Below are positions 8,460 through 47,645 of a stretch of DNA of 64,000 nt, piece by piece. The notes below the pieces were generated by a model. That model searched no databases. It worked only from the letters and a program-made list of their open reading frames with translations, and had not been told where the DNA came from. Made by a program: the position numbers and the translations under genes. This DNA comes from Acidobacteriota bacterium. Lineage in GTDB: Bacteria; Acidobacteriota; UBA6911; RPQK01; JAJDTT01. The DNA lies in assembly GCA_965263035.1 (NCBI GenBank), contig OZ253580.1, positions 4,224,001 to 4,288,000 of the forward strand, written 5' to 3'. How positions within the stretch are numbered: the stretch's first letter is position 1; every line of letters starts with the position of its first letter.

Positions 8460-10058
8460 ATGAGAAGGCGTTCAGCGGCCTGCGGTTTGGCGGGGCTGGT
8501 GTTTTTTCTCCTGAGCGCCGTTGCTGCTGCGGGCTCTGACGAGCCGGTCGCAGTGGGGAGCGAGAAGCAACTTTTCGCTGGACCCTGGACCGAAGACGGA
8601 CGAGACGGCTATCTCGTCGACTCCATGCGCAACGTCACCATGCGGACGGGCGAGGCGATCGCCACCGGTCAGAAGGTGCCCCTTCCGGCACCCGGATTCG
8701 TGGTTCGCGACGGATCCCTCCACCGGCTCTACTACGGCGCACCAGGTGTCGAATGCGACTTCTGGGACCAGAAGCTCCACTGCAATCTCCTGCGCTACGC
8801 GGAATCGGACGACGGTGTGCACTGGAGAAAGCCTTCATTGGGCCTGGTGGAGTGGGAAGGCTCCCGCGACAACAACATCCTGTTCCCCAACGACGATTTC
8901 CCCTACGCTGTGGCCTCCGTCGGCGTCAACACCGTGTTCGTGGATCCCAACGCGTCCGGTCCCGGAGATCGGCTCAAGGCCAGCTACAAACTCACTCCGC
9001 CCCAGGAAACCGGTCCGGACAATGCAATGGAACCGCTTCCCGACGGAAAGGGGAAATACGGTTTTGTGTCCGCCGACGGTATTCACTGGAAGCGGATCAC
9101 GGGCAAGCTGGGCACCTCGGGGGACGGCGGCTTCGAACCCTTCTGGGACGGGCGCATCGGCAAGTACGTGGCCTACAGCCGGGTCAAGACTTTCGACGAC
9201 CCGCGGCAGGTGGACTACTACCATCGGGTCTACGGCAAGCGGAAAATGAACTGGAGGGCCCGGCTCCTCCGCATGGGGCGGTCGGTGTCGGACGATTTCG
9301 TTCACTGGAGTCCGGAGGAGATCGTCCTGGCCCCTGACGACGTGGACGAGGCCGATTCCGTGGCCCCGAACCGCGTCGATTTCTACAGCCTGCCCGTGAT
9401 CCAGTACACGAGCCGGGCCTACGTGGCCTTCCTCTCCATCTACAGTCATTGGAAAGCCCGGGTCAAGAAGGACGGATCGCTGAGCCAGTTCCCGGGACGG
9501 GCCGACATCCAGTTGGCCACGAGCCGCGACGGCATCCACTGGAGCCGGTCCCCGGGGCGGACCCCCTTCATTCGGCTGGGTCCCCAGGGGAGCTTCTGGG
9601 CCGGAATGCTCTTCGTCAAACGTCCGCTCCCCTCGGCGTCGGCCCCGCGCCTGGAGGTCTTCTTCGATGGTTGGCGGAAAGTCCACAACGATCCGACCCG
9701 GACGGGGCAGCCGGTGCGGGGCGTGGCCGTCACCCGGACCGACGGCTTCATCGTGGCCGAAGCCGCCTACACCGGAGGAGAATTGACCACGAAGCCGCTG
9801 GTCTTCGAGGGGAACACGCTCCAATTGAACACGGACACCAGCGCCGGGGGCATCGTGCAGGTAGAGATCCAGGACGAGTCGGGCCGGCCGGTGGAGGGAT
9901 TCAAGGCGGCCGATGCCGACGAGATCAACGGCAACTACCTGAAGGTCGCGGCCAGTTGGAACGGCCGGTCCGACGTGAGCTCGCTGGCGGGGCAACCGGT
10001 CCGCCTCCGCTTCCTCATGCGTGACGCCCGCCTCTACGCTTTCCGGTTCAGCCCCTGA
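8460..10058 (+). CDS. Secreted beta-propeller glycoside-hydrolase-like protein
   Basis: Signal peptide; YAESDDGVHW, SRDGIHW, R.DGF motifs; RBS GAAAGGAG. Confidence 0.7.
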   Translation: MRRRSAACGLAGLVFFLLSAVAAAGSDEPVAVGSEKQLFAGPWTEDGRDGYLVDSMRNVTMRTGEAIATGQKVPLPAPGFVVRDGSLHRLYYGAPGVECDFWDQKLHCNLLRYAESDDGVHWRKPSLGLVEWEGSRDNNILFPNDDFPYAVASVGVNTVFVDPNASGPGDRLKASYKLTPPQETGPDNAMEPLPDGKGKYGFVSADGIHWKRITGKLGTSGDGGFEPFWDGRIGKYVAYSRVKTFDDPRQVDYYHRVYGKRKMNWRARLLRMGRSVSDDFVHWSPEEIVLAPDDVDEADSVAPNRVDFYSLPVIQYTSRAYVAFLSIYSHWKARVKKDGSLSQFPGRADIQLATSRDGIHWSRSPGRTPFIRLGPQGSFWAGMLFVKRPLPSASAPRLEVFFDGWRKVHNDPTRTGQPVRGVAVTRTDGFIVAEAAYTGGELTTKPLVFEGNTLQLNTDTSAGGIVQVEIQDESGRPVEGFKAADADEINGNYLKVAASWNGRSDVSSLAGQPVRLRFLMRDARLYAFRFSP

Positions 10059-10089
10059 CCGTTTTGCTGGCGAATGAGAAGGGGCGGAG

Positions 10090-10233
10090 GGGCGACATCC
10101 TTGTCGCCCATTGGGAGGTGACTTTCTTGTCGCCTGCTCTTCTTTGTCGCTACCGGATGCTGCGGCCGGAAAGTGTAGAGTGGGGACTCCGTCCCCCCTG
10201 CCCCCCTGGTCGGCGACAAGAAAGTCGCCGCTC
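10090..10233. repeat. Cluster of REP-like hairpins (family 1, GGCGAC-N6-GTCGCC-GCTCC)
   Basis: Hairpins at ~10090-10109, 10116-10135 and 10211-10233; relatives at 20041, 20705, 25900, 37247, 37274, 40079, 41662, 52608. Confidence 0.8.
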
Positions 10234-10863
10234 GTGCGCCCGACATGGGCTGTATCTAAGGGATGAAAGATCCCAAGGGAGGTGATGGGACCAACCCTAG
10301 CCGAACCGCAAGGCGTAGCCGCGAGGTGAAGCTGAAGGAAGCGGAAGGCAAACCCACGACCGCAGGAACACGAACCGGCAGCGAGGCCGGGTGCGGGCGG
10401 TGAGCTGGCGAGCAACAGCGAAACCCGAACCCCATCCAGACGTACCAGGTAGAGTCGGGCGGCCCGGGGGGAAAGATGCAGCACCTTACTCGGGGAGATC
10501 TCAAGGGTGAGAGCCTTTGAGAAGTCAGCAGAGGTCATAGTAGCGAAGAAGCCGGATAATGCCGGTGGAGCGAAGGACCGAAGGAGTCGGACGGGCCCTA
10601 TGGTGGACTCGTCAGCGGGATCGCAAATACCTCCGAAAACGGGGCGGGGGGAGGCCCCTCGGACCCGGCATGGAAGGCCCACGGGTGGAGCCCGGCAAGC
10701 CGGAAGGGCGGAGATCAAGTCTCAGCGGCGGCGAAAACCGGAAAGAAAGGCCCTGTACGAGGCTCGAAAGAGCCTCGGGTGACTCCAACCGCCGGATACT
10801 GAAAACGGTACGTCCGGTGGTGTGGGAGGGTGCGGGGGCGCAATCCCCTGCACTCGACCCGAT
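10234..10863 (+). mobile_element. ORF-less class IIC group II intron, copy 1 (630 nt)
   Basis: 5' GTGCGCCCGACATGGG; domain I landmarks (CTGAAGGAAGCGG, AGGAACACGAAC); domain V with CGC triad at ~10788-10821; domain VI ending ACCCGAT; no RT ORF. Confidence 0.92.
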
Positions 10864-10923
10864 CTCGCCTATCGTCTTGCAGCCTGTCTTGTTCCGTCAG
10901 TATCGTAGTCGGAGGAGGACGTC

Positions 10924-12786
10924 ATGCAGCAGAGGGGATTCCGCAGCAGCATCACCACCCAAGGGCGGCGCATGGCCGGGGCCCGGGCTCTCTGGAGGGC
11001 CACCGGCATGAAGACGGAGGACTTCCGGAAACCCATCATCGCCATCGCCAACTCGTTTGCCCAATTCGTCCCCGGGCACGTTCACCTGCATCCCCTCGGC
11101 CAGAGGGTCAAACAGGTCATCGACGCCAGCGGCGGGTACGGAGTGGAGTTCAACACCATCGCCCTGGACGACGGCATCGCCATGGGACACGACGGCATGC
11201 TCTACTCCCTCCCCAGCCGCGAGCTGATCGCCGACAGCGTGGAGTACATGGTGAACGGCCACAAGGCGGACGCCCTGGTCTGCATTTCCAACTGCGACAA
11301 GATCACTCCGGGAATGCTCCTGGGCGCTCTGCGGCTGAACCTGCCCACGATTTTCGTCTCGGGAGGCCCCATGGAGGCCGGCCGGGCCCTGCTGGCTTCG
11401 GGTCCGGCCAAGCTGGATCTGGTCGATTCCATGGTGGCCGCCGGAGACAGCCGGATCAGCGACGCCGAGGTCCTGAAGATGGAGGAGGAGGCCTGTCCCA
11501 CCTGCGGGTCCTGCTCGGGCATGTTCACGGCCAACAGCATGAACTGTCTCAACGAAGCCATCGGCTTGGCCCTGCCGGGCAACGGGACCATCCTCGCGAC
11601 CCACTCACTGCGCTGGCAGCTCTTCGAGCGGGCCGCCAGGCGCATCGTCCAGATGGCCCGCGCCTATTACCTGGAGGGAGACGAAACGGTGCTGCCCCGG
11701 AGCATCGCGACCTTCGAAGCCTTCGAGAACGCCATGAGTCTGGACATCGCCATGGGGGGTTCCACCAACACGGTGCTGCACATCCTGGCCATGGCGCACG
11801 AGGCGGGCGTGGAGTTCACCATGGCCGACATCGACCGCCTCTCGCGGCAGGTGCCCTGTATCTGCAAGGTGGCGCCGGCCACGGGGAAGTTTCATCTGGA
11901 GGACGTGGCCCGGGCCGGCGGGATCCCAACTATCCTGGGAGAGCTCCAGCGCGCCGGCCAGATCCACTCCGGGGTGGGAACCGTCTCCGGGGACGGCATG
12001 GGAGACATGATTCGCAAGAATGACCTTCGCGACGGCAACGGGTCGGTATCCGATTTCGCCCGCCGACGGGCGCTGGCGGCTCCCGGAGGGGTCCGCTCCC
12101 GGGAGGCGTTTTCTCAGGAGAACTATTATCAAGGGTCCGACGTCGACTCGAGGGAAGGCTGCATCCGATCGGCCGAGCACGCCTATTCCCAGGATGGAGG
12201 GCTGGCCGTCCTGTACGGCAATCTGGCCGAGGACGGTTGCATAGTGAAGACGGCAGGGGTGGACGAGTCGATCTGGGTCTTCCAGGGGCCGGCCCGGGTC
12301 TTCGAGTCCCAGGAGGAAGCCTGCGACGGGATCCTGGGCGGACGGGTCGAGGCCGGTGACGTGGTGGTGATCCGGTACGAGGGGCCCAAAGGCGGTCCGG
12401 GAATGCAGGAGATGCTCTATCCGACCTCCTACATCAAGGCCCGGCAGTTGGGCGCCAAATGCGCGCTGCTGACGGACGGCCGTTTCAGCGGCGGAACCAG
12501 CGGATTGTCCATCGGCCACGTCTCTCCCGAAGCGGCTGAGGGTGGGGCCATCGCGCTGGTGGAAGAGGGAGACCTCATCCGCGTCCACATTCCCGAACGG
12601 ACGCTGGAATTGGCGGTCCCCGAGGAGGAGTTGGCGCGCCGCCGCCGTCGCATGGAGGCTCGCGGTCAGGAAGCCTACCGTCCGCGCGACCGTCACCGTC
12701 CCATCTCCCAGGCCCTGGCCGCCTACGCCGCCCTGACCACCAGCGCCGCTCGGGGCGCCGTCCGTGACATCTCCCAGCTCCGATGA
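10924..12786 (+). CDS. ilvD: Dihydroxy-acid dehydratase
   Basis: [48 protein letters not shown]; RBS GGAGG. Confidence 0.97.
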
Positions 12787-20000: not shown

Positions 20001-20063
20001 GGCTGTAGAGTGGGGACTCCGTCCCCCCTGCCCCCCTAACCGGCGACAAGAAAGTCGCCGCTC

Positions 20064-20693
20064 GTGCGCCCGACATGGGCTGTATCTAAGGGATGAAAGA
20101 TCCCAAGGGAGGTGATGGGACCAACGCTAGCCGAACCGCAAGGCGTAGCCGCGAGGCGAAGCTGAAGGAAGCGGAAGGCAAACCCACGACCGCAGGAACA
20201 CGAACCGGCAGTGAGGCCGGGTGCGGGCGGTGAGCTGGCGAGCAACAGCGAAACCCGAACCCCATCCAGACGCATCAGGTAGAGCCGGGCGGCCCGGGGG
20301 GAAAGATGCAGCACCTTACTCGGGGAGATCTCAAGGGTGAGAGCCCTTGAGAAGTCAGCAGAGGTCGTAGTAGCGAAGAAGCTGGGTAATGCCGGTGGAG
20401 CGAAGGACCGAAGGAGTCGGACTGGCCCTATGGTGGACTCGTCAGCGGGATCGCAACTACCTCCGAAAACGGGCCGTGGGGAGGCCCCTCGGACCCGGCA
20501 TGGAAGGCCCACGGGTGGAGCCCGGCAAGCCGGAAGGGCGGAGATCAAGTCTCAGCGGCGGCGGAAACCGGAAAGAAAGGCCCTGTACGAGGCTCGAAAG
20601 AGCCTCGGGTGACTCCAACCGCCGGATACTGAAAACGGTACGTCCGGTGGTGTGGGAGGGTGCGGGGGCGCAATCCCCTGCACTCGACCCGAT
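20064..20693 (+). mobile_element. ORF-less class IIC group II intron, copy 2 (630 nt)
   Basis: About 97% identical to copy 1, same ends, same insertion point GTCGCCGCTC|C. Confidence 0.92.
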
Positions 20694-20736
20694 CACCCCC
20701 TAACCGGCGACAGGAACGTCGCCGCTCCATTGCTCC

Positions 20737-34959: not shown

Positions 34960-37236
34960 TTGGCAAATCAATTGATCATCGGACTTTGGAGTTGGAATCG
35001 CCTGATCATTCTGGGCGCCGTTTTGGCGCTGGCCGGCTGCGGCCGGGGTGGCTCGGAGAAGGGAACTGCACCTTACGGGCTGACTGAGAGGACCCTCTGG
35101 AATACCTCGCGGGTCGTTGGATCTCCCGAACCCCCGCCGCCGTACCAGCTCCGGCGCGTCTTTCCGCAGTACACCTTCGAGAATCCGACCTTCATCGCTC
35201 AGGACCCGAACTCGGAGCGGCTGTTGGTCGCCGAGTACGAGGGCCGGATCTACAGCTTCCAGGGGAACGATCCCGATGCCGGGAAAGACCTCTTCCTGGA
35301 CTGGAACCGCCGGGTTTCGGCCTTTTCCTTCCATCCGCGGTACCGCGACAACGGCCAGGTGTTCGTCTTCAGCCCGACCGACCCCAAGCTGGAAGGCAAG
35401 AAGGATGAAGAGGGCAACCCGGTCACACAGCTCAGCCGGGTCTCCAGGTTCGAGTTGGAACCGGGAAGCGCTCCGCCGCGGCTGCGTCCCGAATCGGAGA
35501 AGGTCATCATCCAGTGGCCGGCCGGTGGGCACAACGGCGGCGAAGCCATCATCGGTCCGGACGGGTACCTCTACGTTGCCACCGGAGACGGCACCGGATC
35601 CGCCGACCGCGACGATACCGGTCAGGATCTGGATGATCTGCTGGCGGTCATGATGCGGCTCGACGTGGAGCGGCCGGACCCCGGCCGGGCCTATTCCATC
35701 CCCGAGGACAATCCCTTCGTCGGCGTGCCCGGGGCCCGGGAAGAGATCTGGGCCTACGGCTTTCGCAATCCGTGGCGGTTCAGCTTCGATCCCGTCTCCG
35801 GTCGGCCCTGGGTGGGAGACGTGGGACAGGATCTCTGGGAGCTCATCGAGCTGGTCAGCCGGGGGAGCAATCACGGCTGGAGCCTCATGGAGGGCTCGCA
35901 CCCGTTCCATCCCAATACGAAGCCGGGTCCGACGCCGATCGTCCCGCCCGTCATGGAGCATCACCACCGGGAGAGCCGATCCATCACCGGCGGCTACGTT
36001 TACCAGGGAGACAAGTTCCCGGAGCTCCGAGGGGCCTACCTCTACGGGGACTACCAGTACGGCAAGATGTGGGGGCTGCGGTACGACCACGATGGGAAGG
36101 AGGTGGTCTGGCGCCAGGAACTCGCCGACTCGCCCGTCAAGATCGTCAGTTTCGGCCAGGGACGGGACGGAGCTTTCTATGCGCTGGACTACGACAGCGG
36201 TGAGATCTTCGAACTGGACCACCGGCCGGCGCCGGAGAAGAGACCGCCCTTTCCGAGGAAGCTGAGTGAGACCGGACTGTTCGCATCGGTGAAGGATCAT
36301 CGGCCGGCTTCCGGCGTCATCCCGTATTCGATAAACGTCCCCTTCTGGTCCGACGGCGCCGGCAAGGAGCGGTTTCTCGCCTTGCCGGGCGAGACGCGGA
36401 TCAAGTTCGACGAGGAAGGCACCTGGGAGTTCGGCGACGGTGCGGTGATGGTGAAGTCGTTCACCCTGGAGACCGAGGAAGGCAATCCGGAGACGCGCCA
36501 ATTCATCGAAACCCGGCTACTGGTGAAGCAGGTCGACCGGTGGGTCGGATACACCTACGCCTGGAACGACGAGCAGACCGATGCCGCGTTGGTGGAGGGG
36601 GACGGCCGAGACCGGACCTATCGGATCCAGGACGGGCGGGCGCCCGGCGGACAGAGAAGCCAAGTCTGGCGCTATCCGAGCCGGGAGGAGTGCATGTACT
36701 GCCATTCCCGCGCGGCCGGCTTCGCGCTCGGACTGAACACTCGTCAGATGAACCGCGACCAGGACTACGGCGAGACCACGGACAATCAGTTGCGAACGTT
36801 GGATCACATCGGAATCTTCAAGGAACCGCTCGAGAAGACTCCTTCAGAATACCCGGCCCTGCCGGATCCTTTCGGGACGGAGGCGGACGTGGAGGCGCGG
36901 ACCCGGGCCTATCTGCAAGTGAACTGCGCTATGTGCCATGCCCCGAGCGGCGGAGGAAACTCCCGGATCAACCTGACCTACACAGCGGAACCGGACAAGG
37001 TCCGCTTGATCGACGAGGCGCCGATTCACGACAACATGGGAGTAGACGGCGCCCGGATGGTGGTTCCGGGCGATCCTGAGCGGTCCCTTCTCTACCGAAG
37101 GCTGATCGTACGAGGTCTGAACCAGATGCCCCCGACCAGCACCAATCGGATCGACGAGCGCGGCGCGGAACTGGTGGCCGATTGGATCCGGCACCTCGGG
37201 ACCGAGTCCAAGCTCACTGCAATGTCGGTGCATTAA
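34960..37236 (+). CDS. PQQ-dependent (glucose/sorbosone) dehydrogenase-family lipoprotein with cytochrome c motifs
   Basis: Lipobox LAGC; HNGG, YGFRNPWRFSFD, GDVGQ, SITGG; CMYCH and CAMCH. Confidence 0.85.
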   Translation: MANQLIIGLWSWNRLIILGAVLALAGCGRGGSEKGTAPYGLTERTLWNTSRVVGSPEPPPPYQLRRVFPQYTFENPTFIAQDPNSERLLVAEYEGRIYSFQGNDPDAGKDLFLDWNRRVSAFSFHPRYRDNGQVFVFSPTDPKLEGKKDEEGNPVTQLSRVSRFELEPGSAPPRLRPESEKVIIQWPAGGHNGGEAIIGPDGYLYVATGDGTGSADRDDTGQDLDDLLAVMMRLDVERPDPGRAYSIPEDNPFVGVPGAREEIWAYGFRNPWRFSFDPVSGRPWVGDVGQDLWELIELVSRGSNHGWSLMEGSHPFHPNTKPGPTPIVPPVMEHHHRESRSITGGYVYQGDKFPELRGAYLYGDYQYGKMWGLRYDHDGKEVVWRQELADSPVKIVSFGQGRDGAFYALDYDSGEIFELDHRPAPEKRPPFPRKLSETGLFASVKDHRPASGVIPYSINVPFWSDGAGKERFLALPGETRIKFDEEGTWEFGDGAVMVKSFTLETEEGNPETRQFIETRLLVKQVDRWVGYTYAWNDEQTDAALVEGDGRDRTYRIQDGRAPGGQRSQVWRYPSREECMYCHSRAAGFALGLNTRQMNRDQDYGETTDNQLRTLDHIGIFKEPLEKTPSEYPALPDPFGTEADVEARTRAYLQVNCAMCHAPSGGGNSRINLTYTAEPDKVRLIDEAPIHDNMGVDGARMVVPGDPERSLLYRRLIVRGLNQMPPTSTNRIDERGAELVADWIRHLGTESKLTAMSVH

Positions 37237-37304
37237 TGGACCCGGTGGAGCGGCGATTTCCAGTCGCCGAACAGGAGCAGCGATTTCCAATCGCCGACCT
37301 CCCC

Positions 37305-39341
37305 ATGAACGGTAACCCGACAAGTCTCATGAACTCGTCCTCACAACAAATGCCGAGTCTCCGCAATTCCGTCTTGAAGATCTGCCTCTGCCTGCCCTGG
37401 ATGCTCTTCTTGCAGGCCCAGAGCACCAGCCGCCAGCTCACCCCCCTTCTGGAACGGGAAACCCTGGAACCGGGGTTGCTTCATCATCTGCTCGGCGAAT
37501 ACCTGCTGTCGCGATCTCCACAATTGCCGCCACTCCCCAGCCGTCCCGAAGAGTGGACGGCCCAGGTGAACGACATCCGCAGGAAGCTACTCCGGGAGGT
37601 GGTCTATCACGGCTGGCCCCAGGAATGGGTTAATGCACCCCTTCGTTTCCGAGAGGTGGGAGCCCCCCAGCAACAGCGAGGATACCGCCTCCGCAAGCTC
37701 CTGTTGCAGGTCTTGCCCGGCCTCCAGATCCCGGCACTGCTCTACGAACCGACGGGAGACCGGAGTTCCTTGCCGGCGGTCCTCAACGTGAACGGCCACG
37801 TCCGAGGCCCCGGCAAGTCCGTCGAGTACAAGCAGAAAAGGTGCATCAGCCTGGCCCGCCGCGGCGTGCTGGCGCTGAATCTGGAATGGCTGGCCTGCGG
37901 CGAGCTGTCCCATCCCGAGAACCAGCACTGGTTCGGCGCTCATCTGGACCTGGTGGGAGCCAACGCCATCGGACTCTTCTACCTGGCCATGCGGAAGGGG
38001 CTCGACTACCTGGAACAGCATCCCCGGGCCGATCCTAAGCGCTTGGCCGTCACCGGACTCTCGGGCGGCGGTTGGCAGACCATCATCCTCTCCTCCCTGG
38101 ACGAGCGGGTCGCCGTGTCCGTTCCGGTGGCCGGCTACTCGGCCCTGATCTCGAGAGTCGAACGGCCGCAAGACACGGGGGACATCGAGCAGAACGCCAC
38201 CGACCTGCTCCGGGGTCAGGACTACTCGACGTTGACCGCCATGCGGGCGCCCAAGCCGACTCTGCTGATCTACAACGCCGAGGACGAATGCTGCTTCCGG
38301 GCTCCCTTGGTCAGGCCCTACATCTACGACGACGTCAAGCCCTTCTTTGGCCTCTTCGGAAAGGGAGACCATCTGGGCTGGCATGAAAACACCGACCCCT
38401 CGACCCACAACTATCAACTGGACAACCGGCTTCAAGCCTACCGGCATCTGTCCCGGCATTTCGGCCTCGGGGATTGGGACCGTGAGGATCCCGTCGATCG
38501 GGAGATCCAGAGCTATGAGGATCTGGTGGTCGGTCTCCCGGAGGACAACCTCACCATCCTGGGCGTGGCGCGCCAGTTGGCCGACAGGAAGCTGCGGGAA
38601 GCGGACCCGGAGGAAGGTCGGGCGGTCGAAGATGTCGAGGACCGCAGGGCAAGACTTCGATCGCTGGTGCGTTTCCAGCCGGTGGCAGTCAAGCATGGGT
38701 GGGCGCTCCACAACACCAAGAATCGGGGGGTGGAATCGTATTCCTATCGAGTTCACTTCAGCGACGGACTCGTTGCATCCGCCCTCTGGGGGAAGGGAAT
38801 CGCCACTGCGGAGGGCGCTCCAGCCTCGATCCTGCTTCTGGACGAGGGCAAGGCGAAGGCGGGCCAACGAGCCTCAGACCGGATCAACCGGGGGGAACAG
38901 GTGCTGGTGGCGGACCTGATCCTGACCGGGGAAGCGCAGCCCCGGAGGAGGAATGCGTCGGACTCCCACCGCTACGCCCAACTCCTGGCCACGGTGGGAG
39001 ACCGGCCGCTGGGGATACGGGCTTCGCATCTCCTGGCTCTGGCCGGATGGCTCAAGGACAATCACGCCGCGGCGGAGGTCCGGGTAGAAGCTCAGGGATT
39101 CCGGAGCCAAGTGGTGGCCCTGCTGAGCGCGGCGCTGGACCCCGCGGCCTTTTCGGAGGTCAGGGTCGAGAAGGGCATGAAAAGCCTGCGCCACCTACTG
39201 GCCAAACCGGTCCGCTACAGCGAGGCTCCGGAACTGTTCTGCCTGGGGCTCTTTCCTGAATTCGATCTGGAGCGCCTGGTTCTCTTGGCCCGACCCACCC
39301 CGGTGGATCAGCGCGTCGAATCATCGGATTCCGGAGATTGA
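37305..39341 (+). CDS. Alpha/beta hydrolase (acetylxylan esterase-like), copy 1
   Basis: TGLSGGGWQT nucleophile motif; exact start uncertain. Confidence 0.8.
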   Translation: MNGNPTSLMNSSSQQMPSLRNSVLKICLCLPWMLFLQAQSTSRQLTPLLERETLEPGLLHHLLGEYLLSRSPQLPPLPSRPEEWTAQVNDIRRKLLREVVYHGWPQEWVNAPLRFREVGAPQQQRGYRLRKLLLQVLPGLQIPALLYEPTGDRSSLPAVLNVNGHVRGPGKSVEYKQKRCISLARRGVLALNLEWLACGELSHPENQHWFGAHLDLVGANAIGLFYLAMRKGLDYLEQHPRADPKRLAVTGLSGGGWQTIILSSLDERVAVSVPVAGYSALISRVERPQDTGDIEQNATDLLRGQDYSTLTAMRAPKPTLLIYNAEDECCFRAPLVRPYIYDDVKPFFGLFGKGDHLGWHENTDPSTHNYQLDNRLQAYRHLSRHFGLGDWDREDPVDREIQSYEDLVVGLPEDNLTILGVARQLADRKLREADPEEGRAVEDVEDRRARLRSLVRFQPVAVKHGWALHNTKNRGVESYSYRVHFSDGLVASALWGKGIATAEGAPASILLLDEGKAKAGQRASDRINRGEQVLVADLILTGEAQPRRRNASDSHRYAQLLATVGDRPLGIRASHLLALAGWLKDNHAAAEVRVEAQGFRSQVVALLSAALDPAAFSEVRVEKGMKSLRHLLAKPVRYSEAPELFCLGLFPEFDLERLVLLARPTPVDQRVESSDSGD

Positions 39342-39352
39342 GGCTCCGGCGA

Positions 39353-39405
39353 TCAGGTAGCGCCGTGCCCTTTGACCTCCGGCCGTATGGCGCTGATGTA
39401 CTCGC
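39353..39405 (-). pseudogene. 3' tail fragment of the homocysteine methyltransferase gene
   Basis: Matches ~47646-47697. Confidence 0.7.
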
Positions 39406-39759
39406 GCCCCCTGGGAGCGGGGACATTCTTGTCCCCGTCTTCATCGCCGACGTGGAACCGGCGGCAGGAAAGCTGTTGCTCCCAGACACCCCGTTTTTCT
39501 GGTTGGCTTGCGCCGGTCCGGAGCCGTTGGGGGCTACTAAGGAGGCTCTATACCTCTCAATATCTGAAGCTTCGTGGAATTCTCAGAGAAGTTGACTGTC
39601 CCCTTCTCACGCCTCCCGTTCGAACGACCCGGCTCCCTGGTCCCGCGGCTGATCCGATAACGTACTTTATTGGAGTCTGATTCCTTCTCCGGGTGCATCG
39701 CGGATTCCATCGTGGTCCGAGACTCCGGAAAGGGATAGAATAGGCAGAGAGGAGAATGC

Positions 39760-39984
39760 ATGTTCGACACGCTCACCGCTGCCGATCAACTTACCGCCGC
39801 CGGAATCGAGCCTCAACAGGCCAAAGCGATCGTGGCTGTCGTTCGCTCCAGTGAAGAGTCCGCCGTCACCCGGACCGAATTGGAAGCGGCGCTGGCCCAA
39901 CTGGAAACCGGGCTCTACAGGGCACTCCTCGTGCAGACTCTCACCATTGGCGGGTTGGTCGTCGCCTTGCCCAAGCTTCTGTGA
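39760..39984 (+). CDS. Small DUF1640/CCDC90-like coiled-coil membrane protein
   Basis: MFDTL...L.AAG....QA.AI; C-terminal TM; RBS GAGGAG. Confidence 0.7.
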   Translation: MFDTLTAADQLTAAGIEPQQAKAIVAVVRSSEESAVTRTELEAALAQLETGLYRALLVQTLTIGGLVVALPKLL

Positions 39985-40531
39985 ACGTGACCGCAGAGAA
40001 GGTGACTGTCCCCTTCTCAAGTCCGCCTCGGGACCGAGTCCAAGCTCGCCGCATTGTCGGTACACTGATGAATCCGGTGGAGCGGCGATTTCCAATCGCC
40101 GAACAGGAGTATCCATGTTGCAAGTGGTGGGTGCTAATCGGTGTTTCCATCCCGTGTCGTTAGTACGTGATCTGTCCGGTCCAAAGGGCACAGGGTTAGG
40201 AGGAGCGTTCTTCCGCCGGAGGTGAGGCGGAGATCGAGCTGGATCCGCCGGGCGCCGTGCAGGGGGCGATGAGTGGACCGATAACTGGATCGAGGGGCCT
40301 GAGATCGTCGACGTCAGTCCTCCGGGAGGTCCGGATACGCCCTGGGGAGCGCCGGGTCAAGCCTCCGGCTCCTCCGCTTCGCTGCGCCCCTTCGGGTGAC
40401 CCGGCGCTCCCCAGGGCGTGAAGAGCTTTCATGGCCGTAAGCAAGCTTCCGGCCAGACTTGACCGGAAGTTCGACAGACGGCCATCAGGGGGTCCACACG
40501 CTCCCTTTCCTCACGGGGTCTCTCCGTGGCC

Positions 40532-41479
40532 TCAGAAGGTCGCTCGGGGCGCTACGGGCAACCAGGTGCGGTCCTGCCGGACGAGGGTGTTGGCCAGGAC
40601 GATGAGCTTGCGCATGACGGCGACGAGGGCCACCTTGCCGGGCTTGCCGCGCTCGCTCAGCCTCCGGTACACCTCGGCCAAGTCGGGGTTCCAGCGCAGG
40701 GCGGCCACCGCCGGCATGTACAGGAGCCGTCGCGCCCGCGCCCGTCCGCCCCGGATGAAGGCCCGGCCCTGCCAAGTCCCCGACTCGCGCGGAACGGCGG
40801 CCAACCCGGCCAGACTGGCGGCGGCCTTGCCGCTGAGGGCGCCCAGCTCGGGCATCTCGGCCAGCAGACCGGCGGCGGTGGTGGCCGCGATCCCCGGGAT
40901 GGAGGTGAGGATCTCCAACTTGCGGGCCCGCGCCTCGTCGGCCGCAATCAGCTGCTGCAATTTGCGGTCGATGGCGCGCAGGTGGCGCTCGAACATGTTG
41001 ATCTGGATCTGGTTCTGCTGTTTGAGCAGGGGTTCGCGGAGCTGTCGGCGGCGGTTGAGCGCGGCCGTGCGCTGGCGCATCAGCGCGTCCCGGGACGTCT
41101 GCAGATCCTGGAGCCGGCGTTGCGTTTTGGACGGCACCTGGGTCCGGCGCGGCTCCAGCGTGGCGGCCAGCTGGGCCAGTTTCCGAGCGTCTACGGCGTC
41201 GGTCTTGGCGCGGCTCCCGGTCGCCCGGGCGAAACACCGGGCCTGCCAGGGGTTCACCTTGGCCAACGGCAGCTTCGCTTTGGACAGCGCTTCCTCGAGG
41301 TCCCGGTGGTAGGGACCGGTGGCCTCGTACGCGACGCACTCGACCGGAGTTCCGATCCAATCAATCAGCGCCCGGAAGCCGGCCGGGTCATTGTCGAACT
41401 GGGCGGAATGGCCGTCGGCCAGCCGGTGCGCGTCCAGGTGCGCTTTCGAGATGTCGATGCCTACGGTATGCTGTTTCAT
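40532..41479 (-). CDS. IS110-family recombinase/transposase
   Basis: GIDISK, EATG, KTDAVDA (DEDD); SIPGI; ESG catalytic Ser; VAVMRKL. Confidence 0.95.
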   Translation of the reverse strand: MKQHTVGIDISKAHLDAHRLADGHSAQFDNDPAGFRALIDWIGTPVECVAYEATGPYHRDLEEALSKAKLPLAKVNPWQARCFARATGSRAKTDAVDARKLAQLAATLEPRRTQVPSKTQRRLQDLQTSRDALMRQRTAALNRRRQLREPLLKQQNQIQINMFERHLRAIDRKLQQLIAADEARARKLEILTSIPGIAATTAAGLLAEMPELGALSGKAAASLAGLAAVPRESGTWQGRAFIRGGRARARRLLYMPAVAALRWNPDLAEVYRRLSERGKPGKVALVAVMRKLIVLANTLVRQDRTWLPVAPRATF

Positions 41480-41484
41480 CTTTC

Positions 41485-41645
41485 CTGTCTCCTGTGCTTG
41501 TCATTCGGGCCTTGATGCCCTCGTATCCATTCAGGACATCGGGAAAGACGGTGGCCGACCTCACTCCCATACGGTTCGTAACAGTCCGCGGCGGTACGGT
41601 CCAGCCACCGCCGTCCGGGTCGCTCATGAGCGACCCGGACGGCCC
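41485..41645 (-). ncRNA. Predicted bridge RNA of the IS110
   Basis: 5' hairpin followed by four guide segments matching target and donor in the expected order; ends approximate. Confidence 0.8.
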
Positions 41646-41688
41646 CATTTAAACAGACAAGCGGCGGTTTCCAGCCGCCGACCTCCCC

Positions 41689-43725
41689 ATGAACGGTAAC
41701 CCGACAAGTCTCATGAATACGTCCTCACAACAAATGCCGAGACTCCCCTATACCGTCCTGAAGATCTGCCTCTGTCTGTCCTGGATGATCGTCCTGCAGG
41801 CCCAGAGCACCAGCCGTCAGCTCACGCCCCTTTTGGAACGGGAAACCCTGGAGCCGGGGTTGCTTCATCACCTGCTCGGAGAATACCTGCTGTCCCGTTC
41901 TCCACAATTGCCTCCACTCCCCAACCGTGCGGAAGAATGGACAGCTCAAGCAAACGACACCCGACGGAAGCTGCTCCGGGACGTCGTCTATCGCGGCTGG
42001 CCCGGGGACTGGGTGGAAGCCCCGCTCCGTTTCCGTGAGGTCGGTCCGCCGCAAGAACACCGCGGCTACCGCCTCCGAAAGCTCCTGCTGCAAATCTTGC
42101 CCGGCCTCCAGATCCCAGCACTCCTCTACGAACCGACGGGAGACCGGCGTCCCCTGCCGGCGGTTCTGAATGTGAACGGCCACGTCCGAGGCCCCGGCAA
42201 GTCCGTCGAGTACAAGCAGAAAAGGTGCATCAGCCTGGCCCGCCGCGGCGTGCTGGCGCTGAATCTGGAATGGCTGGCCTGCGGCGAGCTGTCCCATCCC
42301 GAGAACCAGCACTGGTTCGGCGCTCATCTGGACCTGGTGGGAGCCAACGCCATCGGACTCTTCTACCTGGCCATGCGCAAGGGGCTCGACTACCTGGAGC
42401 GGCATCCCCGGGCCGATCCCAAGCGTCTGGCCGTCACCGGACTCTCGGGCGGCGGTTGGCAGACCATCATCCTCTCCTCCCTGGATGAGCGGGTGGCGGT
42501 GGCCGTGCCGGTGGCCGGCTACTCCGCCCTGATCTCGAGAGTCGAACGGCCGCAGGACACGGGGGACATCGAGCAGAACGCCACCGACCTGCTCCGGGGT
42601 CAGGACTACTCGACGTTGACCGCCATGCGGGCGCCCAAGCCGACTCTGCTGATCTACAACGCCGAGGACGAATGCTGCTTCCGGGCTCCCTTGGTCCGGC
42701 CCTACATCTACGACGACGTCAAGCCCTTCTTTGGCCTCTTCGGAAAGGGAGACCATCTGGGCTGGCATGAAAACACCGACCCCTCGACCCACAACTATCA
42801 ACTGGACAACCGGCTTCAAGCCTACCGGCATCTGTCCCGGCATTTTGTCCTCGGGCCCTGGGACCGGGAGGATCCCGTCGATCGGGAGATTCAGAGCTAT
42901 GAGGATTTGGTGGTCGGTCTCCCGGAGGACAATCTCACCATCCTGGGAGTGGCGCGCCAGTTGGCCGACAGGAAGCTGCGGGAAGCGGACCCGGAGGAAG
43001 GTCGGGCGGTCGAAGACCTCGAGGACCGCAGGGCAAGACTTCGATCGCTGGTGCGTTTCCAGCCGGTGGCAGTCAAGCATGGGTGGGCGCTCCACAACAC
43101 CAAGAATCGGGGGGTGGAATCGTATTCTTATCGAATCCACTTCAGCGACGGACTCGTTGCATCCGCTCTCTGGGGGAAGGGAATCGCCACTGGGGACGGG
43201 GCTCCAGCCTCGATCCTGCTTCTGGACGAGGGCAAGGCGAAGGCGGGCCAACGAGCCTCGGACCGGATCAACCGGGGGGAGCAGGTGCTGGTGGTGGACC
43301 TGATTTTGACCGGGGAAGCGCAGCCCCGGAGGAGGAACGCGTCGGACTCCCACCGCTACGCCCAACTCCTGGCCACGGTGGGGGACCGCCCGCTGGGCAT
43401 TCGAACTTCACATCTGTTGGCCCTGGCCAAATGGCTCAAAGACCATCGCGCCGCGCCGGAGGTCCGAGTCGAAGCCCAGGGTTTCCGGAGCCAGGTCGTG
43501 GCCCTGCTCGGCGCAGCGCTCGAACCCACGGCCTTTTCGGAGGTCAGGGTCGAGATGGGCATGAAGAGCCTAAGCCACCTGCTGGCCAAGCCGGTCCGCT
43601 ACAGCGAGGCTCCGGAACTGTTCTGTCTCGGGCTGTTTCCTGAGTTCGATATGGAGCGCCTGGTTCTCTTGGCCCGGCCCACCCCGGTGGAGCAGCGCTT
43701 CCAGGCGGAGAATTCCGGAGATTGA
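41689..43725 (+). CDS. Alpha/beta hydrolase (acetylxylan esterase-like), copy 2
   Basis: Near-identical protein to 37305-39341. Confidence 0.8.
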   Translation: MNGNPTSLMNTSSQQMPRLPYTVLKICLCLSWMIVLQAQSTSRQLTPLLERETLEPGLLHHLLGEYLLSRSPQLPPLPNRAEEWTAQANDTRRKLLRDVVYRGWPGDWVEAPLRFREVGPPQEHRGYRLRKLLLQILPGLQIPALLYEPTGDRRPLPAVLNVNGHVRGPGKSVEYKQKRCISLARRGVLALNLEWLACGELSHPENQHWFGAHLDLVGANAIGLFYLAMRKGLDYLERHPRADPKRLAVTGLSGGGWQTIILSSLDERVAVAVPVAGYSALISRVERPQDTGDIEQNATDLLRGQDYSTLTAMRAPKPTLLIYNAEDECCFRAPLVRPYIYDDVKPFFGLFGKGDHLGWHENTDPSTHNYQLDNRLQAYRHLSRHFVLGPWDREDPVDREIQSYEDLVVGLPEDNLTILGVARQLADRKLREADPEEGRAVEDLEDRRARLRSLVRFQPVAVKHGWALHNTKNRGVESYSYRIHFSDGLVASALWGKGIATGDGAPASILLLDEGKAKAGQRASDRINRGEQVLVVDLILTGEAQPRRRNASDSHRYAQLLATVGDRPLGIRTSHLLALAKWLKDHRAAPEVRVEAQGFRSQVVALLGAALEPTAFSEVRVEMGMKSLSHLLAKPVRYSEAPELFCLGLFPEFDMERLVLLARPTPVEQRFQAENSGD

Positions 43726-43808
43726 GACACGCGGGACCTTCCTGCGGTGAGACTTTTCCGGTGGAGTCGGCGGCCGGGCGTCTGGTGGATGAAACTCTGG
43801 CTAAAGGT

Positions 43809-43978
43809 CTACCCGCGCCCCTTCACCACCGGCCGCATGGCGCTGATGTGCTCGGGACCCGAAGCGCAGCACCCTCCGATAATCCGGGCTCCCATCCGTT
43901 TCCAGCTCAGGGCGAACTCGGCCATCCGTGAGGGAGTGTATTCGGCGTTCTGCAGAACGTCCGGACCCGAGCTGGACT
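43809..43978 (-). pseudogene. 3' fragment of the homocysteine methyltransferase gene
   Basis: Diverged match to ~47650-47818; truncated at a family 2 repeat. Confidence 0.8.
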
Positions 43979-44199
43979 TCTCAGAGAAGGTGACTGTCCC
44001 CTTCTCACGCCCGTCCTAGGACCTGGACGCACACCGCGCCCGGCGGGACCCGGTGCTGGCGGCACAGCCGTCGGCAGGCTCAAACAAAAGCTAGTTCATT
44101 TTCCGTGAGATGAACTAGACTTGGATCAGGAAGCAACGACCCCTTTCCCGGTCCAGAAGAAGCTGACGATCTTACTTGGATACTCGCACTGAGGAGACG

Positions 44200-45468
44200 A
44201 TGTCACTCGCAATTCGCAAAGCGATACGATCAGTCGCCGCGAACACGATGCTCGTGCGTGAACGCTGGGAGAGCGGTGTCGCATACAATCCGTTGTCGAG
44301 CAGCACCGCTCAGGATCCCTATCCCGTCTACGCGGCGCTACGCGAGCGGGACCCAGTGCACCGGAGCCGCCTGATGAATGCCTGGGTGTTCACGCGCCAC
44401 GCGGACGTGGAAACCATCCTGCGCGACCACAGGCGCTTCAGCAACGATCCACGCAAAGGCAACCTTACGCGCCGCCAGCGCGTCCAACTGCCGCCGGACG
44501 ACGATCTCAGCATGCTGTTCCTGGATCCACCGGACCACAAGCGTCTGCGGGGGCTTGTCAATAAAGCGTTCACGCCAAGGGCGGTGAACGCACTGGAGCC
44601 ACACATCCGAAGTCTTCTCGGGGCCTTGTTGGATGACATCGACGACCCCGCCGGCTTCGATCTCATGGTGGCGGTGGCCCAGCCGCTGCCCGTGATCGTC
44701 ATCGCCGAGATGCTGGGCGTGCCGCCAAAGGACCGCGCCCAATTCAAGATCTGGTCGGACCAGCGTGCGCGCCTTCTGGAGCCGACGATTGACTCCCATG
44801 ACCGCGAGGTCGCCGAGGCCACCTCCAGGACGTTCGATGACTATTTCCGGCCGATCATCAAGGAGTGCCGGGTGGCGCCCCAGGACAACATCGTGAGCGC
44901 GTTGGTCCAAGCGGAGGACGACGGCAACCAGCTGACTGAGCGCGAAACGTTGAACATGCTGCGCCTGCTCTTGATTGCAGGCAACGAAACCACTACCAAC
45001 ATGATTGGCAACAGCATGCTGGCCCTTTTACGTCATCCGGATCAGCTTCAACAACTTAGGGAGAATCCGAGCTTGGTTCCGGCGGCGGTTGAGGAGCTGC
45101 TACGCTTCGACTCACCGGTCCAGATGAGTATGCGGCGCCCGCTCAAGGACTGCGAAGTGAACGGTTTCCCCGTGCGTGAGCGCGAGAATATCGTCGTCCT
45201 GCTCGGCGCGGCCAACCGGGATCCGGATGTATTCGAAAATCCTGATTGGCTCGATTTCGAGCGAAGGGAAGGCAACCACTTGGCATTCGGCCGCGGCATC
45301 CATCATTGCCTGGGCGCCCCTCTGGCGCGTCTCGAAGGCCGGATCGTTCTGGAGACGTTGCTCGAACGCTTCCCGCAGATTAGCCTTCTCACCGAGCGAC
45401 CGCGCTTTCGCAATAGCATCGTGTTGCGCGGCCTTGAATCTCTGCCGCTTTACTGCGTAAGGGCCTGA
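44200..45468 (+). CDS. Cytochrome P450
   Basis: DPPDH.RLR, AGNETT, EELLR, FGRGIHHCLG; RBS GAGGAG. Confidence 0.95.
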   Translation: MSLAIRKAIRSVAANTMLVRERWESGVAYNPLSSSTAQDPYPVYAALRERDPVHRSRLMNAWVFTRHADVETILRDHRRFSNDPRKGNLTRRQRVQLPPDDDLSMLFLDPPDHKRLRGLVNKAFTPRAVNALEPHIRSLLGALLDDIDDPAGFDLMVAVAQPLPVIVIAEMLGVPPKDRAQFKIWSDQRARLLEPTIDSHDREVAEATSRTFDDYFRPIIKECRVAPQDNIVSALVQAEDDGNQLTERETLNMLRLLLIAGNETTTNMIGNSMLALLRHPDQLQQLRENPSLVPAAVEELLRFDSPVQMSMRRPLKDCEVNGFPVRERENIVVLLGAANRDPDVFENPDWLDFERREGNHLAFGRGIHHCLGAPLARLEGRIVLETLLERFPQISLLTERPRFRNSIVLRGLESLPLYCVRA

Positions 45469-45757
45469 GCGCCGCCCCTGCCCCTTCTCTCGGGGCGCAC
45501 AGATCAGTTGCGACCTGCCCGCAAAACGGTCCAGAAGAAGATGGCCAGACGCCCCTAGGAAGGGGTCAGACTAGAATAAGATCAACTTATCGTAGTCTGA
45601 AGAACAACTCTGAACCCCCGATTCTCGGCTCCGACCGCGGTCCTGAGCCGTCCCCTTCTAGTCCAACCCGGTGAGCCCATTTCGGCGAGAAAATCACATT
45701 TCCTGATGTGGAGTCGCCGACGAGTGGCGGAGTCACTCCAAGGCAAAAGGAGGTGTC

Positions 45758-46345
45758 GTGATGATGATCCCACCGATGAAATCCTGCCGAATCCAAGTCT
45801 TTGCGTTGGTCCTGGCCGGACTGATCGGACAGCCGGCGCTCGCGGAAGTGATCCCAGGACGCTGGGAGAAGGTGTCCGATCTGGAGTTGAGAACGTCCAT
45901 CACGGTGGAGCTCAAGAACGGGGATCAAGTCGAAGGGCGCTTTAATGGCCTGTCTGCCTCAGAGTTAGAACTTGAGACCCACTCCGCTCGCGCGATGATT
46001 CCGAAAGCCGATATCCAGATGATTACAGCTCCGGCGAAGGACGGTCTGGCCGAGGGAGCCGTAATTGGAACCGCGATCGGAACGGGTTTCGTGGGCGTAG
46101 TAGCTGCGACGTCCGGTCTTAGGAAGGGCCTCGATACCAGTGCAAAAGGAGCGTTGGTGTTCGCCCTCTTTGCAGTGGGAGTTGGAGCCGCACTAGGTAT
46201 AGCTGCCGATGCATCCACAAAGACCGACGACATCGTGGTCTACTTGGCGCCCGGAACTCCTCGGCGTCCCAAGCACGGAGATTCGGAGTGGTGGCCACCA
46301 GAGCCGCCACCGATCAAGGCAGAAGAGCCTGAGGATTCAGAATGA
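45758..46345 (+). CDS. Hypothetical exported/membrane protein
   Basis: RBS AGGAGGTG, signal peptide, glycine-rich TM segments. Confidence 0.7.
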   Translation: MMMIPPMKSCRIQVFALVLAGLIGQPALAEVIPGRWEKVSDLELRTSITVELKNGDQVEGRFNGLSASELELETHSARAMIPKADIQMITAPAKDGLAEGAVIGTAIGTGFVGVVAATSGLRKGLDTSAKGALVFALFAVGVGAALGIAADASTKTDDIVVYLAPGTPRRPKHGDSEWWPPEPPPIKAEEPEDSE

Positions 46346-46502
46346 CAGGGAATGGGATCTCCTCTGACCGATTAGTCCGCGTCACCTTGGACGAATGGAA
46401 GCAGCCCCTGATTTTCTCGCTACTCCCAGCAGGACCACGTCTTCGTACAGTACAGAGAAGGTGACTGTCCCCTTCTCACGTCGTGTCATAGTGCAATCTC
46501 TT

Positions 46503-46925
46503 TCAGGGAGCCATAAGTACTAGCATGACTACAATGATCGTGGTTGTGATCGTGCCGTGAAACAAACAGAGCGTACGCGACCAGGCTACGCTCCACGTTG
46601 TTCCCACGTTAAACGGGTGAGTGTTCATCGAGAAATCGACCGTTCCATCCTTAGTGTCTCGAACGTGGTCGTAGAGCTTCCGAAATAGGCGCTCTTGGCG
46701 CAGGAAATACGCATCCAGTGCCCAAAACATGACCGCCGGAAGGTACGCCACGTAAACAAAGAACCCGTTGGCATCGGCAGCGGCGAGGGCGAACAGTGCA
46801 GTCACCAATGTGACGGTCCAGCCTTTGACCATGAAAGAGTTTCCAGCCATACGTGTGATGACAGCTTGGATCATCTGGAGGTGTGCGATCTTGGTTTCTG
46901 CGCCGTTACCCATGTTCGGATTCAT
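46503..46925 (-). CDS. Small membrane protein (HL.MIQ.VI.RMA.NSF..KGW type)
   Basis: Three hydrophobic helices, FWALDAYFLRQERLFR.LY; lower GC; start 46925 or 46913. Confidence 0.75.
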   Translation of the reverse strand: MNPNMGNGAETKIAHLQMIQAVITRMAGNSFMVKGWTVTLVTALFALAAADANGFFVYVAYLPAVMFWALDAYFLRQERLFRKLYDHVRDTKDGTVDFSMNTHPFNVGTTWSVAWSRTLCLFHGTITTTIIVVMLVLMAP

Positions 46926-47221
46926 CAACAGAAAACCTACCTGATATCCTGCACGATAATCCGTCCCACGCCTTAGGGTACAACAATTAGCTTTATTGGA
47001 CCCTGACGGTCTTCCCCCTGGTGGCCTCCAGTTCCCCGCGCCTAGACCTGCTGCCGCCGTCCGGGTTCGGATTCCGGAGGGCTTGGTCCTCGCGCCCGTG
47101 CTCACGCACTCACGCCCGTGCTCACGCACTCAGAGAAAGCGACTGTCCCCTTCTCAGTCCCCTTGCTTGATAAGAAAGGAGAGAAGGTGACTGTCCCCTT
47201 CTCACGCGGTCCCCTTCTCGC

Positions 47222-47634
47222 TGGGCAAGGGTAGGGTGAAGGCAGGATCGCCGGCCTCGGATCGGATCAACCGCCGGGAGCAAGTGGTGGTGGACCTGAT
47301 CCTGATCGGGGAAGCGCAGCCACGAAGGAGGAATGCATCGGACTCGCACCGCTACGCCCAGCTCCTGGCCACGGTGAGGGACCGCCCGCTGGGCATTCGA
47401 ACTTCGGATCTATTTGCCCTGGCCAAATGGCTCAAAGACCATCACGCCGCGCCGGAGATCCGGGTCGAAGCCCAGGGTTTCCGGAGTCAGGTCGTGGCTC
47501 TGCTGGGCGTTGCGGTGGACCCAACGGCATTATCGGAGGTCAGGATCGAGAAGGGCATGAAAGATCTTACCTGCCTGCTGGCCGAACCGGTCCGGGTGGA
47601 GCCGCGCTTCGATTCAGAGGATTCCGAAGACTGA
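47222..47634 (+). pseudogene. Third, 3'-only and internally deleted copy of the esterase gene
   Basis: Matches ~43225-43725; lacks the YSEAPELF...RPT segment. Confidence 0.85.
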
Positions 47635-47645
47635 GGCTCCGGCGA

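Follow-up and report, generated by a model that had tools for sequence, protein, structure and literature searches.

Class C group II introns (IIC introns) include GsI-IIC of Geobacillus stearothermophilus, B.h.I1, and O.i.I1. Their usual target is an intrinsic terminator or an attC site, although the class is not strictly defined by it. In this study, we analyzed a class C intron without an open reading frame (ORF) and its target repeat in a 64,000-nt stretch of DNA (the window; contig OZ253580.1 of assembly GCA_965263035.1, positions 4,224,001 to 4,288,000) from an Acidobacteriota bacterium. ORF-less introns have been described as rare in bacteria, with few predicted to have been overlooked, in parts of a review (PMC4424553). 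The ORF-less TeI3 introns of Thermosynechococcus elongatus are the subject of one study (Mohr, Ghanem and Lambowitz, 2010; PMC2882425, in part). It has been reported that two of nine copies of a Pseudomonas putida group II intron occur in association with sequences of the repetitive extragenic palindrome (REP) type (Tobes and Pareja, 2006; PMC1525189, in part). Lagging-strand bias has been reported for introns lacking an endonuclease (En) domain and for class C introns, according to sections of two papers (PMC4424553; PMC8919778).

An ORF-less intron family and its parent

The genome (6.198 Mb, a single contig, G000) was searched by blastn using the 630-nt intron of the window, copy 1, as the query. 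Nineteen full-length ORF-less copies were found (96-100% identity), together with three further ORF-less copies broken by insertions (G000:C1 3067627-3070027, 3923178-3925592, and 5180457-5185638), one 51-nt intron fragment, and two copies of 1848 nt that encode a reverse transcriptase (RT). The ratio of ORF-less to RT-bearing copies is 22 to 2. The two RT-bearing copies carry about 1.2 kb of extra sequence in domain IV and differ from each other at six positions. Two of the broken copies hold the same IS3-family element (rve and HTH_21) in opposite orientations; the third holds an IS21-type element (IstB), which itself carries a 694-aa large serine recombinase.

Analysis of copy 1 confirmed a complete six-domain group II ribozyme without an RT (Table 1). 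Rfam searches of the window gave matches to RF02001 at 10315-10482 (81.4 bits, gathering score 32), to RF01998 at 10485-10578 (47.2 bits, gathering score 35), and to the model for domains V and VI, RF00029, at 10787-10863 (38.9 bits, E 9e-6, gathering score 40). The termini, GTGCG at 10234 and AT at 10862-10863, fit the 5' GUGYG / 3' AY rule, and 23 of the 24 genome copies start with GTGCGC. The minimum free energy (MFE) fold of the 630 nt is the classical six-domain wheel (-277 kcal/mol, z = -4.24 against shuffled sequences). Alignment folding with RNAalifold recovered domains I, II, V, and VI, while domains III and IV were not clean; domain IV is poorly conserved across the 23 distinct sequences. 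Compensatory double changes were observed among these sequences at 20 of 195 predicted pairs, mainly in domains I-III and VI. Domain V differs in only one of the 24 copies and has the same sequence in relatives; its CGC triad is a feature of class C. No ORF within 10234-10863 exceeds 91 aa, and a whole-genome scan with PF00078 gave eight matches; two fall in the 1848-nt copies and none in the 22 ORF-less ones.

The RT of the long copies is intact (409 aa, RVT_1 and GIIM, YADD motif; TIGR04416 363 bits, cut-off 300). The domain search returned RVT_1 and GIIM only, with no endonuclease domain. Its best solved relatives are all of class C, with the GsI-IIC RT first (6ar1, E 1.6e-133), then 7uim, 5hhl, and 5hhj; the next structural matches after GsI-IIC are the IIC RTs of E. 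rectale and R. intestinalis. Eighty relatives are spread over many phyla, at no more than 72% identity. These RT matches and the absence of an En domain, rather than a tree, support the assignment of the parent copies to class C.

The original prediction for this locus had described a complete 630-nt class C ribozyme with no RT ORF, inserted directly after the hairpin CGGCGAC-AAGAAA-GTCGCCG at GCTC/C (the slash marks the insertion point), with GAGC at 10410-10413 in the EBS1 position of the loop GCTG-GCGAGCAA-CAGC. It also placed the end of the intron 60 nt upstream of a co-oriented ilvD. Our results agree on each of these points. It had further suggested a comparison with Rfam models, of which two score above and one just below the gathering score, and a search of the genome for more copies and for an RT-encoding parent; both exist, as counted above. 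The class assignment was borne out by the RT, by the stem-loop target, and by the short pairing with the exon.

The genome also carries a second group II intron family, unrelated to the first, whose domain I is of the RF02003 type and whose RT has 426 aa (RVT_1 and GIIM). Three of its copies are intact (L003, L004, L005) and one has an RT split into parts about 2.2 kb apart (L006/L007). This RT is far more distant from that of GsI-IIC (E 1.9e-47 vs 1.6e-133 for the 409-aa RT). Another RT domain (L008, G000:C1:1811265-1811774; PF00078, 30.7 bits) lies inside a 1253-aa open frame, a size unlike that of a group II intron RT.

Target hairpins, exon pairing and strand bias

A stem-loop followed by GCTC precedes all 24 copies, and C follows 23 of them. 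A stem-loop was also found directly upstream of nine copies with a readable 5' flank in relatives. Seventeen of the 24 copies stand behind the exact motif GGCGRC-AAGAAA-GYCGCC and three behind near variants of it; three use other repeated hairpins (GGGGGTTG.AAACCCCC, GGGGAC-AAGGAT-GTCCCC). The last copy (G000:C1:436206-436835; L053 1507-2136) follows a unique hairpin, GGCCATC-AGGTC-GATGGCC, found on the antisense strand within a gene for a Zn-dependent alcohol dehydrogenase (Zn-ADH). Since the intron is antisense, splicing cannot rescue this gene, which is split after residue 294, with ADH_N and ADH_zinc_N before the break. Because the copies also use other hairpins, one of them not a repeat, the recognized target is the hairpin with GCTC/C and not the repeat as such. 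No long ORF with high G+C at third codon positions (GC3) spans the 24 insertion sites, by a crude gene call that missed the Zn-ADH gene split by one copy.

The exact repeat occurs 170 times in the genome and is followed by GCTC in 92 cases, of which 17 are occupied and 75 empty; all 75 empty sites read GCTC/C. In the window, the hairpin motif (up to two mismatches) is present six times, against none in 100 shuffles. In many places the units are arrayed as direct tandem repeats with a period of 28 nt (for example G000 2539987-2540100), and in the congener G003 a head-to-tail array at 1491539-1491756 keeps a strict 28-nt period over at least eight units. In REPINs inverted pairs are typical, unlike these arrays. 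The repeat family was found throughout the genus, including the congener G002. A RAYT-like gene of 224 aa (L040:1390-2064, minus strand) scores 73.9 bits with NF047646, below the cut-off of 80, and has repeats about 700 nt away on one side only; a second RAYT-like copy (L039:1144-1830, plus strand) is apparently frameshifted (94 + 127 aa). "REP-like" is the safest label for the repeat, because the link between this gene and the repeats is not established. The occupied hairpin at 10211-10230 is followed by GCTCC in place of a T tail and was not called terminator-like; it is also not an attC site. It had been proposed that the intron was retargeted to an abundant REP as its homing niche, with other copies at REPs. 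The location of the copies bears this out (20 of 24 at the exact repeat or near variants), but "retargeted" overstates what is the ordinary IIC mode of insertion.

About 60 nt of the 5' flank are conserved, and this flank was considered as part of the mobile unit and rejected. The composite repeat precedes 14 empty and 11 occupied sites on the permissive strand, where occupancy is 11 of 25 with the composite flank and three of eight without it (p = 1). Being as common at empty sites, the flank lies outside the mobile unit. Genes upstream of the copies were called in the same orientation in 12 cases and in the opposite orientation in 12, an unreliable count (GC3-based call covering 95% of the genome, with shadow ORFs). 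At window 10091-10134 and in many 5' flanks the repeat is present in the opposite orientation (GGCGAC-TTTCTT-GTCGCC with TGCTCTTCTTT) and is scored as terminator-like on the plus strand, right behind the upstream gene. Depending on its orientation, the repeat may thus act either as a transcription terminator or as a landing site for the intron. The population seen in two metatranscriptome runs (X1 and X2) lacks 26 nt at window 10100-10125, roughly one repeat unit, so repeat arrays vary between close strains.

An exon end of GCTC goes with the loop GCGAGCAA (GAGC) in the 22 readable copies of the 24 in this genome, in two copies of G004, and in that of G031; an exon end of CCTC goes with the loop GCGAGGAA (GAGG) in G001, in three copies of G003, and in G008. 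No exception was observed among copies with both ends readable. The assignment of exon-binding site 1 (EBS1) to GAGC is supported by this comparison because the change is compensatory on both sides of the predicted pairing with intron-binding site 1 (IBS1). The pairing is short, as in class C (3-4 bp), with GAGC/GCTC and the compensatory state GAGG/CCTC. The GAGG introns are found mostly behind hairpins of the GGGGGAC..GTCCCCCCTC type, that is, behind another hairpin family, so a single base would shift the introns between repeat classes. We also considered whether the EBS1 state tracks the most frequent tail of the GGCGRC repeat in each congener. This was rejected, since GCTC outnumbers CCTC in all five congeners searched (14 and 0 in G001, 62 and 29 in G003, 9 and 1 in G004, 25 and 1 in G008, 19 and 8 in G002). 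No EBS3 nucleotide, the presumed partner of the 3'-exon C, was located, and it does not vary.

The copies are unevenly distributed with respect to replication. The cumulative GC skew is lowest at 2.86 Mb and highest at 5.84 Mb; the origin was placed by this minimum and by dnaA, at 2,872,067. The sense strand of 20 of the 24 copies lies on the G-rich strand, the parental lagging-strand template (binomial p 0.0015), while only 19 of the 75 empty exact repeat sites have that orientation (Fisher p 6e-7 vs the copies). Exact repeat sites with GCTC are occupied in 14 of 33 cases on the permissive strand and in three of 59 on the other (p 2e-5). The bias agrees with that reported for En-less and class C introns and favors reverse splicing at replication forks as the route of insertion over recombination of repeats. 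Composite units with a GGGGAC hairpin also prefer the lagging-template strand (25 of 43).

Origin, spread and rival explanations

The deletion breakpoints were read directly from the sequences of the two forms. Positions 532-1757 of the long form (1226 nt) are replaced by 11 nt in the ORF-less form, and the junction creates the hairpin CGAGGCTC-GAAA-GAGCCTCG. Domains I-III of the two forms are identical at 346 of 355 bases and the 3' ends at 88 of 91. The final RT codons and the stop codon survive in the ORF-less element, which is a non-autonomous deletion derivative of the resident class C intron.

ORF-less copies were also found in congeners (648 nt in G001, 657 nt in G003, 650 nt in G008), and their breakpoints differ, which indicates that loss of the ORF recurred. 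The G003 copy keeps an in-frame stump (MEQV-FLVPSDLG-stop) and the G008 copy has another junction. G001 and the genome studied here have common flanks, GAGGCTC...AGAGCCT, and may share one deletion event. In G003, at least five RT-bearing copies stand against one ORF-less copy. The intron search of G002 found nothing, though the repeat family is present there. The most distant full relative (L047, G031:C112; RT 72% identical) reads GCGTG, not GTGYG, at the aligned 5' end, which means that its splice site has shifted or that the copy is inactive.

Ten of the 19 intact ORF-less copies show at most one difference from their consensus, and two at distant loci are identical; this points to recent spread. 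The other nine have 3-31 differences, with older variants shared by eight of them. With 12 differences copy 1 is intermediate, and copy 2 of the window, with 21, belongs to the older type. At the site orthologous to copy 1 before ilvD, an empty repeat with GCTC/C was found in all four readable congeners, so the insertion in the window is lineage-specific.

We consider it probable, with good confidence in the explanation as a whole, that the family is a non-autonomous derivative of a class C intron, mobilized by the resident sister RT onto sites of hairpin plus GCTC/C. The 1226-nt deletion removed the RT/maturase ORF from domain IV and spared all ribozyme domains, with a short GAAA-capped hairpin in its place. 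The steps of the proposed mechanism are taken from established IIC biology. Intron RNA would be transcribed by read-through from neighboring genes, and its folding and splicing would be aided by the RT/maturase from the two intact 1848-nt sister copies. The ribonucleoprotein could then reverse-splice into single-stranded DNA at the replication fork wherever a stem-loop precedes GCTC/C, with EBS1 (GAGC) pairing with GCTC and one further base reading the 3'-exon C; the RT would copy the inserted RNA, presumably with the nascent lagging strand as primer. As the abundant 28-nt palindromic repeat ends in the hairpin and GCTC/C motif, it would offer a safe and plentiful landing pad.

Four metatranscriptome runs (X1, X2, X4, X8) were compared, as assembled contigs, with window 9400-11900. 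A single 366-nt contig of X1 (depth 10.1) connects 10233 with 10864, skips the 630 nt (GT..AT), and runs into ilvD. Its joint is the predicted exon junction (GTCGCCGCTC-CTCGCC). X2, X4, and X8 gave no joint at the splice sites. Relative to the window, the X1 population carries a few substitutions and lacks 26 nt. The joined contig supports the intron boundaries to the base and is no proof of splicing: an allele without the intron would explain it as well as a spliced ilvD leader, and RNA libraries can contain DNA. The ligated junction had been named beforehand as the sign of splicing, and a form with this junction is present in an RNA library. None of the three refuting outcomes named with the original prediction (no splicing, no related RT, other copies away from REPs) applies. 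The depth of the intron itself (about 1000-1500, vs 7-25 in the flanks) sums contigs over some 24 copies and other organisms, and is therefore unreadable as RNA accumulation; an unspliced junction specific to this locus was not distinguishable in these data.

Three other explanations were weighed against mobilization by the resident RT. It seems unlikely that the copies are immobile, decaying relics that spread together with the repeats, by recombination or array duplication and not by retromobility. The direct 28-nt tandem arrays are indeed recombination-prone, and decay is visible in the three copies broken by insertion sequences, the one with a mutated 5' end, and the 51-nt fragment. Such a history is difficult to reconcile with boundaries that agree to the base at 24 loci whose outer flanks are unrelated, with a copy in unique coding sequence, or with empty units that read GCTC/C at the exact intron position in every case. 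The strand bias of the introns is opposite to that of the empty repeats, domain V is conserved in all copies but one, and ten copies are nearly identical. Still less probable, in our estimate, is movement without the class C RT, driven by an RT of the second family or by protein-free reverse splicing followed by host repair. The genome holds three intact RT genes of that family, and a preprint reports protein-free self-integration by a ribozyme (10.1101/2024.08.31.610620); but the ribozyme of the second family is of another type (RF02003) and its RT is far more remote. Both cognate RT copies are intact and nearly match the ORF-less copies in domains I-III, V, and VI.

The remaining alternative concerns the ilvD locus alone. 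The copy there could have been co-opted as a regulator, with splicing of the leader or its failure controlling ilvD, and its orientation and its position 60 nt before the start codon would suit such a role, as would the joined contig, which runs from the upstream repeat into ilvD at nearly the depth of ilvD (10.1 vs 10.2). Contig depth is not an expression measure, however, the insertion is specific to this genome, with all four readable congeners empty, and the copy is one of 24 that obey the same target rule, with no features specific to the locus. We regard co-option as a very improbable account.

Several observations weigh against the proposed explanation. The RF00029 match falls 1.1 bits short of its gathering score, and the EBS1 covariation has two states among close relatives, which may amount to one or two events. 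Domain IV, the expected binding place of IIC RTs, is the most diverged part between the ORF-less and RT-bearing forms (about 80% identity by eye), so recognition of the ORF-less RNA by the resident RT is not guaranteed. The joined contig was obtained in one of four runs, its short side is 33 nt, and its strain differs from that of the window. Four of the 24 copies lie on the other strand; the copy at genome position 2489581 starts with GTACG, has T at the first 3'-exon position, and has probably lost activity. The identity, copy number, and boundaries of the copies are shown here, as are the target rule, the EBS1-IBS1 pairing, the strand bias, and an intact cognate RT. Splicing in vivo, action of that RT in trans, the mode of priming, and any effect on ilvD are inferred, and present mobility of the copies is at most putative.

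A broader proposal can be made for the genus, with somewhat less than even confidence. Its class C introns may repeatedly become pairs resembling long and short interspersed nuclear elements (LINE/SINE-like), through independent losses of the ORF in several species. In the genome studied here, the GAAA-capped form would be actively mobile and spliced in vivo, outnumbering its driver 11 to 1 and filling about 40% of the correctly oriented repeat sites, with GAGC/GAGG switches moving the family between repeat classes.

Table 1. Intron copies, ribozyme domains, target elements and ilvD in the 64,000-nt window.
Feature	Position	Strand	Basis and remarks
Upstream part of composite repeat, GTAGAG-TGGGGAC-TCC-GTCCCC-polyC	10174..10210	+	Common to copies 1 and 2; repeat, not intron
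5'-exon target stem-loop CGGCGAC-AAGAAA-GTCGCCG	10211..10230	+	Arms 10211-10217 and 10224-10230, loop 10218-10223; DNA fold -8.6 kcal/mol
IBS1, GCTC	10230..10233	+	CTC after the hairpin arm; hairpin and IBS1 form one unit of the REP-like repeat
ORF-less class C group II intron copy 1	10234..10863	+	630 nt; Rfam matches, six-domain fold, 19 full-length genome copies
Domain I	10238..10491	+	Approximate limits, MFE fold; compensatory changes at pairs 21-244, 44-64, 142-157, 173-184
Putative EBS1, GAGC	10410..10413	+	Terminal loop GCGAGCAA of stem GCTG/CAGC (10404-10419); complementary to exon GCTC
Domains II and III	10492..10579	+	RF01998 match; fold
Domain IV, without ORF	10583..10785	+	Terminal hairpin CGAGGCTC-GAAA-GAGCCTCG at 10758-10777
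Retained last RT codons and stop, CTC GGG TGA	10774..10782	+	Inside domain IV
Domain V	10788..10821	+	34-nt helix, 2-nt AC bulge; triad position CGC at 10790-10792; RF00029 alignment
Domain VI	10823..10861	+	Fold, RF00029 alignment; covarying pairs 596-621, 598-619, 601-616
Candidate branch point, unpaired A	10857	+	In domain VI, seventh base from the 3' end; predicted fold
First 3'-exon base C, IBS3 candidate	10864	+	C in 23/24 copies and after 75/75 empty repeat + GCTC sites
ilvD, dihydroxy-acid dehydratase	10924..12786	+	ILVD_EDD, E 1.5e-126; co-oriented, starts 60 nt after the intron
Target hairpin and GCTC of copy 2	20041..20063	+	Sequence, fold
ORF-less class C intron copy 2	20064..20693	+	Belongs to the older subfamily; 97.6% identity with copy 1
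Next unoccupied repeat unit, GGCGACAGGAACGTCGCC + GCTC/C	20706..20727	+	Just 3' of copy 2

Elsewhere in the window, at 37194-47824, several families of 90-300-nt direct repeats (83-89% identity) occur at spacings of 2.8-8.3 kb, mostly 3.8-4.4 kb. Their arrangement suggests tandemly duplicated genes or modules unrelated to the intron.

Comparison with known introns

The one well-studied case of a proliferating ORF-less intron belongs to a different intron class (parts of PMC2882425). A class C family dominated by its non-autonomous form would provide a compact natural system for the dependence of retroelements on a driver, and it would bear on the minimum size of a mobile ribozyme and on how fork access and target supply limit spread. 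Its advantages are a simple target rule that can be read from sequence and the presence of empty and filled sites throughout the genome. It also carries a warning for annotation: RT-based searches would report two introns in this genome and miss 22. Text searches of the literature revealed no earlier account of an ORF-less class C family proliferating on palindromic repeats; ORF-less introns of class C, or hairpin targets other than terminators, may be described in Simon et al. (2008) and Mohr et al. (2018).

With GsI-IIC, B.h.I1, and O.i.I1 the family shares the type of its parent RT, which is closest to that of GsI-IIC and lacks an En domain, as well as insertion directly after a DNA stem-loop, a short IBS1, and a small domain I. 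The lagging-strand bias is likewise a reported property of class C (passages of PMC8919778). The family differs from these introns in that its hairpins are neither terminators nor attC sites but an abundant palindromic repeat, and in that 22 of 24 copies are ORF-less.

The TeI3 introns, as described in sections of PMC2882425, resemble the family in the deletion of the domain IV ORF with remnants of its ends, in the excess of ORF-less over ORF-bearing copies, and in the presence of intact sister RTs as possible drivers. They differ in belonging to another class with an En domain, long EBS/IBS pairings, and diverse sites. All 17 TeI3 copies share one deletion, whereas breakpoints differ among the congeners examined here, and mobilization in trans by sister RTs was demonstrated experimentally for TeI3 and is only proposed for the present family. 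With the elements reported in REPs (parts of PMC1525189) the family shares a repeated extragenic palindrome as its landing site. Here, however, 17 of 24 copies lie at the exact repeat (20 with near variants), and the position is fixed to the base and explained by the EBS1 pairing rule. Hairpin targeting by IIC introns and the proliferation of ORF-less introns are both known, and their combination on REP-like repeats is a variant of these themes and not a new kind of element.

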